38,287 nt of DNA from a virus: UHGV virus genome UHGV-1369766. One strand, 5' to 3'. Numbering within the stretch: position 1 is the stretch's first letter; each line of letters starts with the position of its first letter. A program made the translations under genes and the position numbers. Under the pieces are notes generated by a model. The model worked only from the letters and a program-made list of their open reading frames with translations. It made no database searches and was not told the origin of the DNA. This document shows positions 5,553 to 30,891 of this stretch, piece after piece.

Positions 5553-6521
5553 TTAGTAGGTTATTTTTGTTGCGAATACTTCGCCTTTTACGATGGCTGT
5601 TATGATATTTTTAGCAACATCTTCTGATGCGCCAACCTTGATAAGGTCAGCAAGTATTTTGTTATTTACTTCTTTCCGGTGAGCTTTATCCTTTGCTCTA
5701 CGCTCTTCTTCGTCCTTGATTCTTTTTTCTTCTGCTATTCTGGCTTGCTCTTTTACTTCAGCCTCGCGCCGGATTCGTTCAGCCTCCTCCTGTGCTTTTC
5801 GGCGTTCTGCTTCAATTGCCGCCTGCTTTTCTCTTTCAGCTCGTTCTGCTGCCTCTTTTGCTTCGCGCTGTGCTCGTTGCTCGGCTTCAATGCGTTCACG
5901 CTCTGCACGTTCCGCTGCGGCCTTAGCTTCTGCTTCTCGCCTTGCTGCTGCTTCAATTTCGGCTTTTGCCTTTGCTTCGGCTTCAGCTCTGGCTTTCTCT
6001 TCAGCTTCTCTTTTTAAGCGTTCTTCATGCTCTCGCTTTTCCTGCTCAGCTTTGAGTCTTGCCTCTTCTCTTTGGCGGTCAAATTCGCGATCCATCAAAA
6101 TCGCTATTTCATGGTCAGACTCAATTTGCTTTGCGAGAGCTTCAGCTGCTGCCTTAGCTTCTTCTTCGGCTTTAATCCGCGCCTGTTCTTCCTCATAATC
6201 AGTAAGAGGCTGGCGCGCCTTGGCTTTCAGTTCATCAAGGCGATCACGCACTGTCTTGCGGTTGGCATCAATTAGCTTTGGAATTTCCTTAAGTTCAGCA
6301 ACAAGGTCTTTGCCAAGACCATCGAGATATGTTTTCGTCTGCGCAACTTTATACGCCAGAGAAGCGATCTCCTTTCTGCCCTTTGCCGTTGTGATATCAG
6401 GCACAAAGGACATAACTTCACGTTCAACCTTTTGGAGAATTTCTTCAATCTGGTCGGCAGACTGAAATACAGTCATTGCATTTGCTTTTTCAATAACAAC
6501 TAAATCTGTTACTTCACTCAT
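5553..6521 (-). CDS. Hypothetical protein with long E/R/K/A-rich predicted single alpha-helix or coiled-coil segment
   Basis: 322 aa from the ATG at 6519-6521 (GGAGGAT RBS); ~110 aa of charged repeats (AEEKARAEAEAKAKAEIEAAARRE...); position analogous to the ea10/ral/sieB accessory segment of lambda. Confidence 0.65.
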   Translation of the reverse strand: MSEVTDLVVIEKANAMTVFQSADQIEEILQKVEREVMSFVPDITTAKGRKEIASLAYKVAQTKTYLDGLGKDLVAELKEIPKLIDANRKTVRDRLDELKAKARQPLTDYEEEQARIKAEEEAKAAAEALAKQIESDHEIAILMDREFDRQREEARLKAEQEKREHEERLKREAEEKARAEAEAKAKAEIEAAARREAEAKAAAERAERERIEAEQRAQREAKEAAERAEREKQAAIEAERRKAQEEAERIRREAEVKEQARIAEEKRIKDEEERRAKDKAHRKEVNNKILADLIKVGASEDVAKNIITAIVKGEVFATKITY

Positions 6522-8589: not shown

Positions 8590-9306
8590 TCAAACCAGCC
8601 TTAGTTTTGTCTCAATTGCAACGCCTATAATCTTGCAGTTTCCATTGATTGGCACGAGAGGCCATGCAGGATTAAGTCCCTTGAGGTATTTATTTCCGCC
8701 GTCGATTATCAGCTTCTTGAATGTTGCTTCGTTAGAGTCAGAAAGTTTTGCTATGACCAAGCTGCCGTTGATCGCCTCCCTTCCGGTATCGAAAAGAACG
8801 AATGTTCCCTCTGGAATGCTTAACCCAACCGGTGCCGTCATTGAATCACCTTCCACTTTAAGCCAGAACGCATTACCTTGAATATGCGCGTCAGACTCAA
8901 GCCAAACATCTATGTCTTTAATGGTGTATGGTTCGCATGCTTCACACCACGAGCCAGCCTGGATACTGCTTAACACCGGATACCTCTTTCCTGCTCTGTA
9001 TTCCCCTGCATACCTTACGTTGGCATCGCTCTTAAGGCTTTCTGCCTGTTCTGCAACCTTGGCAGCAATTGACTGGCTAAAATCAGCAATTGAGACTTGC
9101 AACAGTCGTGCAAAACCAGATGCAACCTCAACGTTTAGCGCGTTTCTGCCATTAAGATAATGCCCTACCGCTCCTTGGGTGATACCCAGTTCATCAGCGA
9201 TTGAGTATTGGGTTATTCCCAATTCTTTCTTTTTTGACTCATACAAAGCCTTAAGCCGCTTAGCGTCTTCGAGCTGTTCTGTCGTCAGTGATTTTTTATT
9301 TTCCAT
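8590..9306 (-). CDS. cI: CI-type prophage repressor (HTH plus LexA-like S24 peptidase domain)
   Basis: 238 aa; N-terminal HTH (QYSIADELGITQGAVGHYLNG), C-terminal autocleavage-type domain (...VEGDSM...KL...); divergent to cro across an operator-rich intergenic region. Confidence 0.9.
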   Translation of the reverse strand: MENKKSLTTEQLEDAKRLKALYESKKKELGITQYSIADELGITQGAVGHYLNGRNALNVEVASGFARLLQVSIADFSQSIAAKVAEQAESLKSDANVRYAGEYRAGKRYPVLSSIQAGSWCEACEPYTIKDIDVWLESDAHIQGNAFWLKVEGDSMTAPVGLSIPEGTFVLFDTGREAINGSLVIAKLSDSNEATFKKLIIDGGNKYLKGLNPAWPLVPINGNCKIIGVAIETKLRLV

Positions 9307-9383: not shown

Positions 9384-9412
9384 TTGTTCATGGTTAATAA
9401 CGGAGAGTGCAT

Positions 9413-9607
9413 ATGATTCGAATGACACTTGCCGATTACGCCAAAATCCATGGACAGGCTAAAGCAGCCAGTGACTTTGGTGTAATCCAGTGCGCTATCA
9501 GCAAGGCCATTCTGGCAGGTCGTAACATTATGGTTACGGTAAAGCCTGATGGCAGTGTGATTGGAGAGGAAGTTCGTCCTTTCCCAAGCAACAAGAAAAA
9601 CAAATAG
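9413..9607 (+). CDS. cro: Cro repressor
   Basis: [33 protein letters not shown]...FPSNKK closely parallels my recollection of lambda Cro; GGAGAG RBS before the ATG at 9413 (track ORF starts 6 nt earlier at GTG). Confidence 0.85.
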
Positions 9608-9715: not shown

Positions 9716-9994
9716 ATGCAACTTACAAGTACTCGCAAGAAAGCGAATGCAATTACAAGCAACATCCTGAATCGAATTGCTGTACGTGGTCAGCGAAAGG
9801 TTGCCGACGCGTTAGGGATTAATGAATCGCAAATTTCGCGATGGAAAGACAGCTTCATCCCAAAAATGGGAATGCTTCTGGCTGTTCTTGAATGGGGTGT
9901 TGAAGACGAGGAGTTGGCGGAACTGGCTAAGAAAGTAGCCAGAATGCTGACAAAAGAAAAAGCCCCGAAGAACGGCGAATTCTTCGAGGCCTGA
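9716..9994 (+). CDS. cII: CII transcriptional activator
   Basis: ...SQISRWK...IPKMGMLLAVLEWGV... matches the conserved lambda CII core as recalled; AAGGAA RBS. Confidence 0.85.
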   Translation: MQLTSTRKKANAITSNILNRIAVRGQRKVADALGINESQISRWKDSFIPKMGMLLAVLEWGVEDEELAELAKKVARMLTKEKAPKNGEFFEA

Positions 9995-10028
9995 TGTAGA
10001 AAGACTGGATCAATCCACAGGAGTAATT

Positions 10029-10190
10029 ATGACAAAACGTCGTAAGAAATACCAGGAAAAAGAAGAGATTCGACACCCTGATTCACCTGAGGGATTAGTG
10101 GTAGCCGCAGCAAATAACAGGGCGTTCGCAGAGCGCCTTGTTGGTGTTTACAGACTAGCCAAAGCAGGAGTGAAACATGGGCGTCGTTAA
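10029..10190 (+). CDS. Hypothetical small basic protein (53 aa)
   Basis: ATG with AGGAG RBS; not in the ORF track (<60 aa); overlaps the annotated start of the following gene. Confidence 0.3.
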   Translation: MTKRRKKYQEKEEIRHPDSPEGLVVAAANNRAFAERLVGVYRLAKAGVKHGRR

Positions 10191-11067
10191 GTTAGCTGAT
10201 TACAGGCATAACCCTGTACAACATCAGGAGGCATCCAGTATGGGGTATGTCTCTATACACCGCCAGTTTATGGACAGCAGGCTCTATAAGGACTCTCAGG
10301 CAGTACATCTTTGGCTTCACTTAATCCTCAAGGCTAATCACGAATCTACTGTCGTCAATACGGATATCGGGCCGATAACTGTTGATCGCGGTCAGATGAT
10401 AACTGGACGCCCGTCGCTGGTCAGAGAAACATTCATCCCCGACAACAAAGTTCGGAGCTTATTACGGACTTTTGAGTCGAAAGGGATGCTTAATATTTGC
10501 TCGATGGGGAAGAAATTTAGCCTGTTTACAATCGTTAAATATGACGATTTTCAGGCAAAAAATTGTCCAACGGTTGTCCAACGGTTGTCCAACGCAAACA
10601 CCAGTAATGGCGCGGCTCTCAGCGGAGATTGTCCAACGGTTGTCCAACGGTTGTCCATAAACAATAATATAAATAATATCTCTAATACTGACGTATTAGA
10701 GAGTGCCACAGCAGACAAAAAGTCTGACAAGAAAAAACCTTCCGTCAGCTGTCAGGATGTTGTCGATGCTTACCACGAAATCCTTCCTGAAGCGCCAAGA
10801 ATCCGCGCACTGAATGACAAGCGTAAAAACCAGATCCGAACGTTCTGGCGCAAAGCCGGAGTGATAACCCGCCAGCTTGACGGGCATGGGTTCACGATGC
10901 AGGACTGGAGAAATTATTTGAGCTACGTAGGCGAAAATTGCCGATGGATGTTCGAAGAACGCCCAAACCATCAACGCGGAACCGTCTGGCACAAAAAGGG
11001 ATTTGATTTCCTGCTTAACGACAATACCTACCTGAAAGTTCGTGAGGGTGAACACGATGACCGATAA
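10177..11067 (+). CDS. Replication initiator (lambda O functional analogue) with embedded origin iterons
   Basis: 296 aa ORF; the 11-bp iterons at 10563-10659 lie inside the coding sequence (encoding the repeated CPTVVQRLS peptide), as in lambdoid ori-in-O arrangements; stop overlaps the helicase start. An alternative start at ATG 10239 (AGGAGG RBS) is possible. Confidence 0.75.
   Translation: MGVVKLADYRHNPVQHQEASSMGYVSIHRQFMDSRLYKDSQAVHLWLHLILKANHESTVVNTDIGPITVDRGQMITGRPSLVRETFIPDNKVRSLLRTFESKGMLNICSMGKKFSLFTIVKYDDFQAKNCPTVVQRLSNANTSNGAALSGDCPTVVQRLSINNNINNISNTDVLESATADKKSDKKKPSVSCQDVVDAYHEILPEAPRIRALNDKRKNQIRTFWRKAGVITRQLDGHGFTMQDWRNYLSYVGENCRWMFEERPNHQRGTVWHKKGFDFLLNDNTYLKVREGEHDDR
10563..10700. 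repeat. Origin of replication: six 11-bp iterons (TTGTCCAACGG) in two triplets plus an AT-rich tract
   Basis: Direct repeats at 10563-10594 and 10629-10659, then aaacaataatataaataatatct; embedded in the initiator gene. Confidence 0.8.
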
Positions 11068-12493
11068 TTTTTATGCGCCTCCCCATAGCATCGAGGCAGA
11101 GCAGGCGGTTATTGGTGGATTGCTTCTGGATGATGACAGCAGTGAGCGCGTCCAGAAAGTTCTGGCGATGCTGAAGCCTGATTCATTTTACAGCCGACCA
11201 CACAAAATCATTTTCGAAGAAATAACCAGAATGCACCGGGAGCAAAAGCCAGTAGATGGCCTGACGCTTTTCGATGAACTGGAGCGTAAATCGTTAACGG
11301 CGTCTGTTGGCGGTTTTGCTTATATCGCTGAGATCGCAAAGAACACGCCAAGCGCCGCAAACATCGTTGCCTATGCAATGCAGGTTCGCGAAACCGCAAT
11401 GGAACGCTACGCCATCAACCGCATGACTGAAGCGACGGAATTGCTCTATTCCCGCAACGGAATGACTGCGACGCAGAAGTACGAAGCTATTCAGGCGATT
11501 TTCACGCAACTGACAGACCATGCAAAAACCGGATCGCGTCGCGGCCTTCGCTCATTTGGTGAGGTCATGGAAGACTGGGTTAGCGACCTTGAGAAGCGAT
11601 TTGACCCGTCAGGCGAACAACGAGGAATGAGCACAGGGATCCCATCGCTGGACAGGATGCTGTCACCGAAAGGTCTGGTGAAAGGCTCTCTGTTTGTCAT
11701 TGGCGCTCGCCCTAAGATGGGGAAAACGACGCTATACAGCCAGATGGCAATCAACTGCGCAGTGCATGAGAAAAAGCCCGCTCTGATGTTCAGCCTTGAA
11801 ATGCCCGGTGACCAGATACTGGAAAAACTGGTAGGACAGAAGTCAGGTGTTAACCCGAATATTTTTTACCTTCCGGCGACAAATGACGCTGATGACGGCT
11901 ATCAGGGTGATTACGATGGTGACTTCAACAGGGCGATCGAAACAGCCAATCGCTTGAGTGAAATCGACCTGCTTTACATCGACGACACGCCGGGATTATC
12001 TCTGGCTCAAATCGTCAGCGAAAGTCGTCGAATCAAGCGAGAAAAAGGATGTGTTGGCATGATTCTGGTCGATTACCTGACACTAATGACTGCTGAGAAG
12101 GCCGATCGCAACGACCTTGCTTACGGCATGATCACCAAAGGACTGAAGAACCTTGCCAAAGAGCTTGATTGCGTTGTTGTGCTTCTGACACAGCTTAACC
12201 GCGCACTGGAAAGTCGAACCAATAAACGCCCATTACCAAGTGACTCACGAGATACAGGGCAGATTGAACAGGATTGCGATTATTGGGTGGGGATCCATCG
12301 TGAAGGTGCTTTTGATGACAGTGTTCCACCTGGTGAAACCGAACTAATCCTTCGTCTCAATCGTCATGGCAATACCGGCACGGTGTATTGCATTCAGGCA
12401 AATGGCGCTATTTATGACACAGACCAACAGTCCGCTGAAATGCGCCGCCGTGAACGCGAGGAACCGCAGTCCAAGAAGAAAGGAGGATTCTGA
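11057..12493 (+). CDS. Replicative DNA helicase (DnaB family)
   Basis: N-terminal SIEAEQAVIGGLLLD motif, Walker A GARPKMGKTT, DnaB-like C-terminal motifs; start ATG at 11057 preceded by GAGGGTGAA. Confidence 0.85.
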   Translation: MTDNFYAPPHSIEAEQAVIGGLLLDDDSSERVQKVLAMLKPDSFYSRPHKIIFEEITRMHREQKPVDGLTLFDELERKSLTASVGGFAYIAEIAKNTPSAANIVAYAMQVRETAMERYAINRMTEATELLYSRNGMTATQKYEAIQAIFTQLTDHAKTGSRRGLRSFGEVMEDWVSDLEKRFDPSGEQRGMSTGIPSLDRMLSPKGLVKGSLFVIGARPKMGKTTLYSQMAINCAVHEKKPALMFSLEMPGDQILEKLVGQKSGVNPNIFYLPATNDADDGYQGDYDGDFNRAIETANRLSEIDLLYIDDTPGLSLAQIVSESRRIKREKGCVGMILVDYLTLMTAEKADRNDLAYGMITKGLKNLAKELDCVVVLLTQLNRALESRTNKRPLPSDSRDTGQIEQDCDYWVGIHREGAFDDSVPPGETELILRLNRHGNTGTVYCIQANGAIYDTDQQSAEMRRREREEPQSKKKGGF

Positions 12494-27369: not shown

Positions 27370-28788
27370 ATGCCGATTCAGCAACTTCCGCTTATGAAAG
27401 GTGTCGGCAAAGACTTTCGAAACGCCGACTATATCGACTATCTGCCAGTGAATATGCTGGCTACACCAAAAGAAATCCTTAACAGCAGCGGATATCTTCG
27501 CTCATTCCCTGGCATTGCCAAACGTTCTGATGTGAACGGTATATCGCGCGGCGTCGAGTACAACATGGCGCAGAGTGCTGTATATCGCGTGTGTGGGGGC
27601 AAGCTGTATAAGGGCGAAAGCGAAGTCGGTGATGTTGCCGGAAGTGGTCGTGTATCAATGGCGCATGGTCGGACATCTCAGGCTGTAGGCGTTAATGGTC
27701 AACTGGTCGAGTATCGCTATGATGGCACGGTTAAAACCGTCTCAAACTGGCCTACTGATAGCGGATTCACTCAGTATGAGTTAGGTTCAGTCCGCGACAT
27801 TACACGCTTACGTGGGCGTTATGCGTGGTCAAAAGACGGCACGGATTCATGGTTTATCACTGACCTTGAAGACGAATCGCATCCTGACCGTTACAGCGCA
27901 CAATATCGCGCAGAATCGCAGCCGGACGGTATCCTCGGCATCGGAACATGGCGAGACTTCATCGTCTGCTTTGGTTCATCGACGATTGAATATTTTTCCC
28001 TGACTGGGGCAACCACCGTTGGTGCCGCTTTGTATGTCGCACAGCCATCACTGATGGTGCAGAAAGGCATTGCCGGGACTTACTGCAAAACGCCATTCGC
28101 TGATTCTTATGCGTTCATCAGCAATCCGGCAACAGGTGCGCCGTCTGTGTACATCATCGGTTCCGGTCAGGTATCACCAATCGCCAGCGCGAGCATTGAG
28201 AAAATACTACGCTCCTACACTGCTGATGAACTGGCTGATGGCGTGATGGAGTCTCTGCGATTTGATGCGCATGAGTTGCTGATTATCCACCTTCCGCGCC
28301 ATGTTCTCGTGTACGACGCATCTTCAAGCGCCAATGGTCCGCAATGGTGTGTACTGAAAACAGGCCTGTATGACGATGTGTACCGCGCTATCGACTTCAT
28401 TTACGAAGGCAACCAAATAACGTGCGGCGATAAGCTTGAATCGATGACAGGGAAATTGCAGTTCGATATCAGCAGCCAGTACGACAAGCAACAGGAACAC
28501 CTGCTGTTTACTCCGTTGTTCAAAGCGGATAACGCCAGAGTGTTCGACCTTGAGGTTGAATCGTCAACTGGCGTTGCGCAGTACGCCGACCGCCTGTTCC
28601 TCTCTGCAACCACTGACGGAATCAATTACGGACGTGAGCAGATGATTGAGCAGAATGAACCGTTCGTTTACGACAAGCGCGTTTTGTGGAAGCGAGTCGG
28701 GCGCATCAGGAAAAATGTCGGCTTCAAATTGCGCGTTATCACGAAGTCACCTGTAACTCTGTCTGGCTGCCAGATAAGGATTGAGTAA
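27370..28788 (+). CDS. Tail accessory protein (P22 gp10-like)
   Basis: 472 aa, same length and order as P22 gp10; strong RBS. Confidence 0.8.
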
Positions 28789-29741
28789 TGGCTGATTCTA
28801 ATCTCAATGAGCCGGTAATCATCCAGGCTACGCGGCTCGATACATCAGTCCTTCCACGCAATATCTTCTCGCAGTCATATCTGCTGTACGTTATCGCACA
28901 GGGCACTGATGTTGGTAACGTGGCTAACAAAGCCAACGAGGCCGGACAGGGCGCTTATGATGCACAGGTCAGGAACGATGAGCAGGATGTCACCCTTGCA
29001 GACCATGAATCCAGAATTGAAGCTGCTGAAGCAACTCTCATCAATCATGAACATAGAATTGCAGCAGCGGAAAGCACTCTTGCAGATCATGAAACAAGGA
29101 TTACGGCTGCTGAAACAGAACTGGCTGATCACGAGACGCGAATTGCTGCCAATGAATCTGAGTTAGCAAACCATGATGCGCGCATAACTCAGAATACAAC
29201 CGATATCGACGCACTTGATACCAGGCTCACAGCGGCAGAGGGAAGTATTTCGACGCTACAAAGCACAGTTGGTGATCACTCAACAAGAATATCTGCGCTT
29301 GAGTATGCCACCACGCGCAAGAAATCAGAGGTTGTTTACTCAGGGGTATCGGTAACAATTCCGACAGCGCCTACCAACCTTGTTAGCCTGCTGAAAACGC
29401 TCACGCCGTCATCCGGCACGTTGGCACCATTCTTCGACACCGTTAACAACAAGATGGTTGTGTTCAACGAGAACAAAACCTTGTTCTTCAAGCTGTCGAT
29501 CGTCGGGACGTGGCCCAGCGGAACCGCCAACAGGTCAATGCAGCTAACATTTTCCGGTTCTGTTCCTGACACGTTGGTAAGCAGTCGCAACTCGGCGACA
29601 ACAACCGATAACATCTTGTTAGCTACGTTCTTCAGCGTGGATAAAGACGGATTTCTTGCCACAAATGGCAGTACGTTAACCATCCAGTCAAATGGTGCGG
29701 CGTTTACTGCCACAACCATCAAGATAATCGCGGAGCAGTAA
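28788..29741 (+). CDS. Tail needle protein (P22 gp26-like) with extended C-terminal domain
   Basis: N-terminal ~60 aa ([43 protein letters not shown]...[16 protein letters not shown]) parallels P22 gp26; followed by heptad-like ADHE(S/T)RI.AAE repeats; 317 aa versus ~233 aa for P22 gp26. Confidence 0.85.
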
Positions 29742-30198: not shown

Positions 30199-30891
30199 AT
30201 GTTATATGCATTTAAGCTGGGCAGAAAACTGCGCGGCGAGGAACCTTATTGCCCTGAAAAAGGCGGGAAAGGTGGCAGTTCTGATAAAAGCGCAAAGTAT
30301 GCAGCAGAAGCTCAGAAGTATGCCGCAGACCTGCAAAATCAGCAGTGGCAGACGATCATGAAAAACCTTGCTCCGTTCACGCCTCTTGCGGAGCAGTATG
30401 TTAACCAGCTTCAGAACCTTTCCAGTTTAGAAGGTCAGGGGCAGGCACTTAATCAGTATTACAACTCTCAGCAGTATAAAGACCTTGCAGGTCAGGCTCG
30501 TTACCAGAGTCTTGCTGCTGCGGAGGCTACGGGAGGACTTGGCTCGACAGCCACAAGCAATCAACTGGCTACGATCGCGCCGACTCTCGGTCAGTCTTGG
30601 TTATCAAACCAGATGAGCAATTACAACAATCTGGCAAACGTTGGGCTTGGTGCTCTGCAAGGTCAGGCAAACGCCGGGCAGACGTACGCCAACAACATGA
30701 GCAGCATTGCACAGCAAAGCGCAGCTCTTGCCGCTGCTAATGCCAACAAACCATCAAGTCTTCAGACAGCAATTAGTGGCGGAACGTCTGGTGCGATTGC
30801 CGGTGCAGGTCTTGCCAGCCTTTTGGGAACATCAACACCTTGGGGCGCTGGCATTGGTGCTGGTATCGGATTGCTTGGCTCGTTGTTTTAA
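30199..30891 (+). CDS. Ejection protein (P22 gp7-like)
   Basis: 230 aa; order and size as P22 gp7; Gly/Ala-rich C-terminal hydrophobic segment. Confidence 0.75.
   Translation: MLYAFKLGRKLRGEEPYCPEKGGKGGSSDKSAKYAAEAQKYAADLQNQQWQTIMKNLAPFTPLAEQYVNQLQNLSSLEGQGQALNQYYNSQQYKDLAGQARYQSLAAAEATGGLGSTATSNQLATIAPTLGQSWLSNQMSNYNNLANVGLGALQGQANAGQTYANNMSSIAQQSAALAAANANKPSSLQTAISGGTSGAIAGAGLASLLGTSTPWGAGIGAGIGLLGSLF

Follow-up and report, generated by a model that had tools for sequence, protein, structure and literature searches.

The DNA analyzed here (a stretch of 38,287 nucleotides, hereafter the window) belongs to a lambdoid phage of the P22/HK620/Sf6 type. Upstream of its replication initiator gene lie the genes for a CI-type repressor (8590-9306, minus strand), Cro (9407-9607) and CII (9716-9994). 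Between cII and the initiator there is an open reading frame of 53 amino acids (10029-10190, plus strand; PHROG 1331; Sf6 gene 42, 'HK97 53 protein homolog'), which overlaps the start of the initiator gene by 14 nt and occupies the position of orf48 in P22, HK022 and phage L. The minus strand at the end of cII (9960-9992) contains a strong hairpin that, with its run of T residues, resembles a terminator, and the sequence GACTGGATCAAT, which begins at 10003 (10003-10035), resembles the start of a 33-nt motif, ACTGGATCaATCc..., that represents the oop promoter and the 5' end of its transcript (PMC3349717). Together, the hairpin and GACTGGATCAAT suggest an oop-type antisense RNA; Rfam returned no match in the window.

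The initiator gene itself (10177-11067, plus strand) encodes an 'O-like' protein of 296 amino acids, which matched PHROG 345 ('replication initiation O-like') over its full length (E = 5.8e-85) and corresponds to Sf6 gene 43, phage L gene 18 and the HK620 O class. At the DNA level, the gene shares 99-100% identity with the genes for 'replication protein O' in Huey, mEpX2, HK633, HK75, IME10 and Sf6, the value for Sf6 gene 43 being 99.1%. The annotated start differs from record to record, at the ATG at 10177 in Sf6 and at 10240 in Huey; the former is supported because the homologues align from residue 1. Immediately downstream comes a gene for a DnaB-type replicative helicase of the P22 gene 12 class (11042-12493, plus strand), recognized by Pfam (DnaB_C, E = 3e-60; DnaB N-terminal domain, E = 6e-32) and by the annotation of Sf6 and Huey. 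Its reading frame opens at the GTG at 11042, and the records use the ATG at 11057; a start at this ATG overlaps the end of the initiator, including its stop codon, by 11 nt, which suggests translational coupling of the two genes.

The initiator protein had no match in Pfam (above cut-off, E ≤ 0.01) or among the sequences of the PDB, and no usable one in NCBIfam. An AlphaFold (AF2) model built on an alignment of 49 diverse relatives consists of two confidently predicted domains and a linker between them; a shallower alignment (23 sequences, at least 72% identity) gave a poor N-terminal domain with a pLDDT of about 50. The N-terminal domain (aa 25-127, encoded by 10249-10557 on the plus strand; pLDDT 93-98) is predicted to be a winged-helix domain, with helices at residues 78-85 and 89-101 that form a helix-turn-helix (78-101) and a beta wing at 105-119. 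Its best Foldseek matches in the PDB were all winged-helix DNA binders, weak ones (E ≥ 0.028), so that this search is consistent with a winged-helix fold but is not diagnostic of it. Four of 49 distant relatives matched PF09681 (Phage_rep_org_N) and some matched generic winged-helix families. This domain also aligned with the N-terminus of SPP1 G38P at 28% identity over 111 amino acids (BLASTP pairwise E = 8e-13; tblastn E = 1e-5) and, as judged from this alignment, is homologous to it. The C-terminal domain (aa 190-293, encoded by 10744-11055 on the plus strand; pLDDT 91-98) presumably recruits the helicase, and the N-terminal domain presumably binds the repeats described below. The linker between them (aa 128-188; pLDDT 40-47) is predicted to be disordered, and the DNA that encodes it coincides with the repeats, the AT-rich tract and the palindrome that are the subject of this work.

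This part of the gene had been marked in a first-pass annotation as a replication origin with iterons arranged as two triplets of an 11-bp repeat. In the first triplet (10563-10595, plus strand), TTGTCCAACGG is repeated head to tail at 10563-10573, 10574-10584 and 10585-10595, and direct reading shows that the third copy is TTGTCCAACGC, with a C as its final base. A G+C-rich spacer of 33 nt (10596-10628) follows, which together with the first triplet makes one unit of 66 bp. In the second triplet (10629-10657, plus strand), two full copies (10629-10639 and 10640-10650) are followed by a truncated one, TTGTCCA (10651-10657), which makes 2.6 copies in all, and the starts of the two triplets are exactly 66 bp apart. 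Direct reading, a repeat search and TRF all returned these same arrays. The description given in the first-pass annotation, namely three tandem copies, a second triplet ending in a truncated copy, an AT-rich tract behind it and a position inside the initiator gene, agrees with what we found; the gap, previously given as 34 bp, is 33 nt, or 34 nt when the mismatched C is counted in. The comparison drawn there with lambda also stands: six iterons of 11 bp are shorter and more numerous than the four 19-bp iterons of lambda.

The array is the only one of its kind in the window. When TTGTCCAACGG was searched with at most one mismatch, five matches were obtained in the 38,287 nt, all of them at 10563-10657, compared with 0.69 expected, and none of 100 shuffled sequences reached five. 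The same search revealed no further iteron cluster and no second origin comparable to SPP1 oriR anywhere in the window, and the bare hexamer TGTCCA was found outside the array at chance frequency only. Likewise, no DnaA boxes (TTATCCACA-like, at most one mismatch) were found within several kb of the candidate origin. Tandem repeats of other kinds were seen at 28991-29093 (period 42, 2.5 copies), 30288-30329 (period 21, 2 copies) and 5926-6009 (a degenerate GCTTCT array, 14 copies); these probably belong to the coding sequences of late or accessory genes. On the minus strand, each triplet yields a promoter-like pair of hexamers, TGGACA and GACAAT, 18 nt apart (10562-10591 and 10628-10657; 9 of 12 positions matched), and one further pair was seen on the plus strand (10640-10668); all are matches at the level of consensus only. 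We also considered whether the junctions between iterons form dyad sites like those of lambda, since a 9-bp dyad, CAACGGTTG, arises wherever two copies abut. This candidate was dropped because the dyad is absent in the homologues of phage L, HK022, Klebsiella and CobraSix, the corresponding sequences being CAACGGATG and CCAGCAGATTACC.

The truncated iteron is directly followed by a tract in which 20 of 21 nt are A or T (10658-10678; 95%, with a single C), presumably the DNA-unwinding element; windows of 40 nt across 10640-10699 have a GC content of 20-25%. Next to the tract there is a perfect palindrome (10679-10702), TCTCTAATAC-TGAC-GTATTAGAGA, with two arms of 10 nt and a loop of 4 nt. It was absent from the first-pass annotation and extends 2 nt beyond the end of the origin given there, 10700. 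As single-stranded DNA the palindrome folds at -9 kcal/mol (z = -5.3). Since a search of the whole window with Rfam gave no match, the palindrome is not explained by a known RNA.

The iteron region has been annotated before in close relatives. In the record of Sf6 (AF547987), a rep_origin at 28385..28480 maps to 10562-10657 of the window and is described as 'putative; repeat region reminiscent of the phage lambda origin; similar to phage HK620'. In that of phage L (MW013503), the homologous bases are annotated as 'putative origin of replication', and the accompanying paper describes the putative origin in gene 18 and contrasts it with the four ~20-bp repeats in lambda and P22 (PMC8022706). In phage L, six copies of the same 11-bp repeat, TGTCCAACGGA, are found in the gene for a protein 82.5% identical to that of the window. 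The putative origins in Sf6 gene 43 and phage L gene 18 are the same element as that in the window, and nothing substantive differs between them; the two annotations, both of them predictions, span the repeats only, without the AT tract or the palindrome. Since near-identical phages have this element annotated as a putative origin, its presence here is an ordinary and already known finding. A literature search found no experimental work on origins of this 11-bp-iteron class.

We then compared the window with more distant members of the family, which comprises 8,617 representative clusters at E ≤ 0.001. The homologues fetched were those of phage L (78% identity over the whole protein), HK022 (66%), VT2-Sakai (65%), the Klebsiella phage ST101-KPC2phi6.1 (47%), the Enterobacter phage CobraSix (42%) and Erwinia phage 59 (30%, rising to 41% across the N-terminal part matched in tblastn), and 240 loci were added by scanning IMG/VR. 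All six of the fetched homologues have, at the same codon position (aa 129-133), 11-bp repeats grouped in two triplets whose period is 66 bp, and in all six the last iteron is truncated in the same manner and is followed by a tract of ~20 nt with 0-18% GC and then by a palindrome. The 66-bp period was found in 186 of all loci fetched from IMG/VR and GenBank. The sequence of the iteron itself differs: the core is TGTCCAAC in the window and phage L, TTACCAGC in HK022 and VT2-Sakai, (G/T)TGCCAAC in the Klebsiella and Erwinia phages and TGTCCAGC in CobraSix. All classes share only the CCA at positions 5-7 and the C at position 9. Among 40 distinct origins of class A, the core TGTCCAAC (positions 2-9) is nearly invariant and variation is found at positions 1, 10 and 11. 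In the two large iteron classes, substitutions fall on these same positions and leave the 8-bp core untouched.

Because the repeats lie within a coding sequence, they might have been kept for the sake of the protein, as a duplicated peptide with no role for the DNA. They are indeed in frame, the peptide CPTVVQRLS occurs twice in the initiator, and P131 and P153 are invariant across the family. However, each of the three copies in a triplet is translated in a different frame (NCPTVVQRLSN), and selection on a peptide cannot produce a period of identity of 11 nt. Moreover, the peptide varies from class to class (CPTVVQRLS, VPADYQQIT, VPTECQQSA, CPADVQPVS) while the 11-bp periodicity of the DNA persists, the segment is predicted to be disordered, and the CCA that never varies in the iteron core accounts for the invariant Pro and Gln. 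We therefore regard a purely protein-level explanation as extremely improbable. That an 11-bp period is read in three frames within a linker predicted to be disordered indicates that the constraint acts on the DNA and not on the protein. The grouping of iterons in threes can be explained in the same terms, since 3 x 11 = 33 nt, or 11 codons, is the smallest multiple of the 11-bp unit that stays in frame.

The number of 66-bp units is not the same in all natural alleles, which have one, two or three. One-unit alleles (3 iterons, 22 amino acids fewer) are found in prophages that encode proteins of 274 amino acids (P0036, in 33 contigs, and P0041; for example locus L062:1840-2040), and a three-unit allele (9 iterons, 22 amino acids more) in prophages that encode a protein of 318 amino acids (P0001, in 14 contigs; locus L060:1862-2122). 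Such variant alleles occur on many bacterial contigs. Either the number of iterons is not strictly fixed, or those prophages are defective. The variation also implies that the region does undergo unequal exchange, and one could imagine that the repeats have no function and merely arose neutrally, through slippage or unequal crossing-over, in a linker that tolerates them. Such an origin of the repeats is hardly compatible with the rest of the comparison: the 2 x 3 x 11 layout is kept down to ~30-47% whole-protein identity with different sequences in it, the core is almost invariant within classes while the flanking positions drift, the iteron class tracks the N-terminal domain (see below), and exactly two units are present in every one of the 26 isolated GenBank phages of the same class whose coverage of the test queries is 80% or more. 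We consider it no more credible than the protein-level explanation.

The relation between iterons and protein was analyzed with 18 representatives. The N-terminal domains are 75% identical on average within an iteron class and 51% between classes, and the corresponding values for the C-terminal domain are 46% and 45%, showing that the iteron sequence co-varies with the N-terminal winged-helix domain only and not with the C-terminal domain. Two individual comparisons illustrate this from opposite sides. Between the window and HK022, the C-terminal domains are 100% identical, the N-terminal domains are only 50% identical and the iterons differ; the DNA of the two phages is near-identical from the AT tract rightward, which places a mosaic joint between the last iteron and the AT tract, at 10651-10680 of the window and 729-765 of the HK022 locus (L004). 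Conversely, one locus (L176:801-2443) has the same TTGTCCAACGG iterons as the window and an N-terminal domain 63% identical to it, but its C-terminal domain is unrelated (18%) and the next gene encodes a homologue of lambda P (PF06992, E = 1.6e-62) instead of a DnaB-type helicase. In general, relatives in which a lambda P homologue is the next gene have the C-terminal domain swapped for an unrelated one. The design is thus modular, the N-terminal domain and the iterons forming one module and the C-terminal domain and its partner the other, as is known for lambda O.

A related but different layout was seen in sister O proteins (L187, L189, L195 and L221, at ~1170-1350 of each locus), in which the two clusters consist of 12-bp iterons, CCGCGCATAAnn or CCGCACATnnnn, in 3+3 or 4+4 copies, with cluster periods of 69, 81 or 105 bp, and are followed by an AT tract and a dyad centred on GAATTC. 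Sister loci with 12-bp or 21-bp iterons match the Pfam family Phage_rep_O (L189, E = 2.7e-15; L220, E = 6.3e-25).

The palindrome behind the AT tract behaves differently from the iteron core. Across the 186 loci, its site is occupied by 13 distinct perfect palindromes with arms of 9-11 bp and loops of 2-4 nt, among them ACTTACTACC/GGTAGTAAGT, CTCATTAGGT/ACCTAATGAG, TCTCTTCTAC/GTAGAAGAGA and CTCTTTATCT/AGATAAAGAG. In an unfitted MAFFT alignment of 18 sequences, 8 of the 10 pairs were changed on both sides and 80.6% of the cells were paired, a count that is conservative because 4 of the 18 sequences are misaligned there. The covariation score was 0.537, compared with 0.187 for shuffled alignments (none of 500 reached the observed value) and 0.11-0.23 for controls in which the position was slid. 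The palindrome is therefore kept as a structure and not as a sequence, through compensatory changes. Because it is the symmetry that is kept, a hairpin or cruciform is indicated rather than a fixed site for a protein, and evolution by compensatory change means that the palindrome is probably a structural part of the origin.

A hairpin conserved in this way could also serve transcription, as an intrinsic terminator of leftward (antisense) transcripts that has no part in the origin. In a consensus scan, 10702-10679 on the minus strand indeed looked like a terminator, the hairpin being followed by TATTATTTAT, and in the record of phage L a minus-strand terminator is annotated on the homologous bases. 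Only 3 of the 10 pairs in the stem are G-C, however, the T-rich tail is simply the AT tract, and neither a promoter nor a transcript directed leftward is known from within the gene. Furthermore, the lambda-type relatives have a different dyad element at the same place, TTCGTC...GACGAA around GAATTC. We therefore think it unlikely, though worth keeping in mind, that the palindrome is a terminator alone. The functional origin unit probably takes in the repeats, the AT tract and also the conserved palindrome up to 10702.

Taken together, these elements most likely constitute an origin of phage theta replication embedded in the initiator gene, a reading to which we assign a probability of roughly 85%. 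It is based on the rep_origin annotation of relatives, the conserved anatomy, the homology to SPP1 G38P, the helicase encoded downstream and the presence of a single cluster. The interpretation of the region as an origin in the first-pass annotation is thereby supported, as the layout is kept across the family and the iterons co-vary with the DNA-binding domain; a function in replication is what these features point to. One may ask whether the iterons, while binding the initiator, serve regulation (autoregulation, copy control or fork arrest) and replication starts elsewhere. Iteron arrays of plasmids also serve copy control, and gp38 of SPP1 has been proposed to stall forks at its second site, oriR (PMC6316719). 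The window, however, has one cluster only, the AT tract flanks the cluster in every homologue, and its position corresponds to those of the proven origins of lambda and SPP1 (oriL). A purely regulatory role consequently seems quite improbable, though not to the degree of the protein-level and neutral explanations.

How an origin of this form might fire can be outlined as follows. The N-terminal domains would line up head to tail on the six iterons, with roughly one helical turn from each to the next and probably with one domain per 11-bp unit, although this stoichiometry is a guess. By analogy with lambda (PMC7466680, PMC12663957) and SPP1, the resulting nucleoprotein complex may stress the flanking AT tract until it melts. 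Our preferred guess for the palindrome is that it would extrude when the AT tract melts, hold the bubble open and offer the helicase a junction. The C-terminal domain would recruit the phage's own DnaB-type helicase, encoded immediately downstream, and with a helicase brought in this manner a loader of the lambda P type would not be needed. Rightward early transcription through the gene probably aids activation, as it does in lambda. A further and more tentative proposal, which we rate as somewhat doubtful, is that these phages represent a distinct mechanistic class among the lambdoid phages, in which a G38P-like winged-helix domain polymerizes head to tail on two in-register triplets, the structure-conserved hairpin or cruciform beside the unwinding element is essential, for example as a platform for the helicase, and alleles with one, two or three units tune the strength of the origin.

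On its own, one more origin of a P22/HK620-like phage, placed where curated records already put it, has little weight. The family as a whole offers a natural series of specificities, in which at least four classes of iterons are paired with their N-terminal domains and in which winged-helix reading of head-to-tail iterons could be followed. Two points alone seem worth experiments, the head-to-tail class of iterons and the palindrome as a structure. Structured DNA at the origins of phages appears to be detected by some defence systems, and Lamassu is enriched at the origin iterons of lambda during infection (PMC12663957); hairpins such as the one described here may therefore matter in the conflict between phage and host.

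Among the known systems, iteron plasmids (Rep/iteron origins) differ from the window in that DnaA boxes adjoin their iterons, whereas the origin in the window lacks them. With P22 the window shares the gene order of gene 18 and gene 12, the strategy of using a DnaB-type helicase and the position of the origin inside gene 18 (PMC8022706). P22 gp12 is a DnaB-type helicase according to Wickner 1984, as that work is cited in PMC8022706. The gp18 protein of P22 shares only 25% identity with its phage L counterpart, and gene 18 of P22 has four repeats of ~20 bp and not six of 11 bp (PMC8022706).

The likeness to SPP1 is of another kind. SPP1 gp38 (G38P) binds the direct repeats of oriL, which lie inside gene 38 by an AT-rich unwinding element, and the system has been reconstituted in vitro (PMC6316719). 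In the SPP1 sequence, the oriL repeats begin just past the part of the gene that codes for the N-terminal domain, as they do in the window. Both phages thus have origin repeats within the initiator's own gene, followed by AT-rich DNA, and a helicase of the DnaB family encoded downstream. The C-terminal domain Phg_2220_C, the separate loader G39P, the second origin oriR and repeats of other sizes are found in SPP1 only: the initiator of the window has no match to Phg_2220_C (PF09524), there is a single iteron cluster, and the initiator and helicase genes overlap, with no loader gene between them.

With lambda, the window has in common an origin placed midway along the initiator gene, where it separates the coding part of the DNA-binding N-terminal domain from that of the partner-binding C-terminal domain, an AT tract on the promoter-distal side of the iterons, and a specificity module made of the N-terminal domain and the iterons. 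A dyad element after the AT tract was seen directly in the lambda-type loci L187-L221. Taylor and Wegrzyn reportedly described one, in 1995, at that place in lambda itself. The lambda ori in gene O consists of four 19-bp iterons and an AT-rich region, on which the O-some is formed (PMC7466680, PMC12663957). The lambda iterons are imperfect inverted repeats of ~19 bp, spaced ~21 bp apart and bound by O dimers, while the repeats in the window are 11 bp long, head to tail and arranged in two triplets; moreover, the partner of O is the P loader, which hijacks host DnaB, and that of the window's initiator is a phage DnaB-type helicase encoded by the next gene. Phage_rep_O (PF04492) had no match in the whole initiator protein (E ≤ 0.01) or in its N-terminal domain (aa 20-138, E ≤ 1). 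The first-pass annotation had called the arrangement the ori-within-initiator layout of lambdoid phages, and this is right for the iterons, the AT tract, the position within the gene and the place upstream of the helicase, but it does not extend to membership in the lambda O family, to 19-bp dyad sites or to a P loader. The lack of a PF04492 match together with the 11-bp direct repeats indicates that what the origin of the window shares with that of lambda is its way of working rather than its sequence family.
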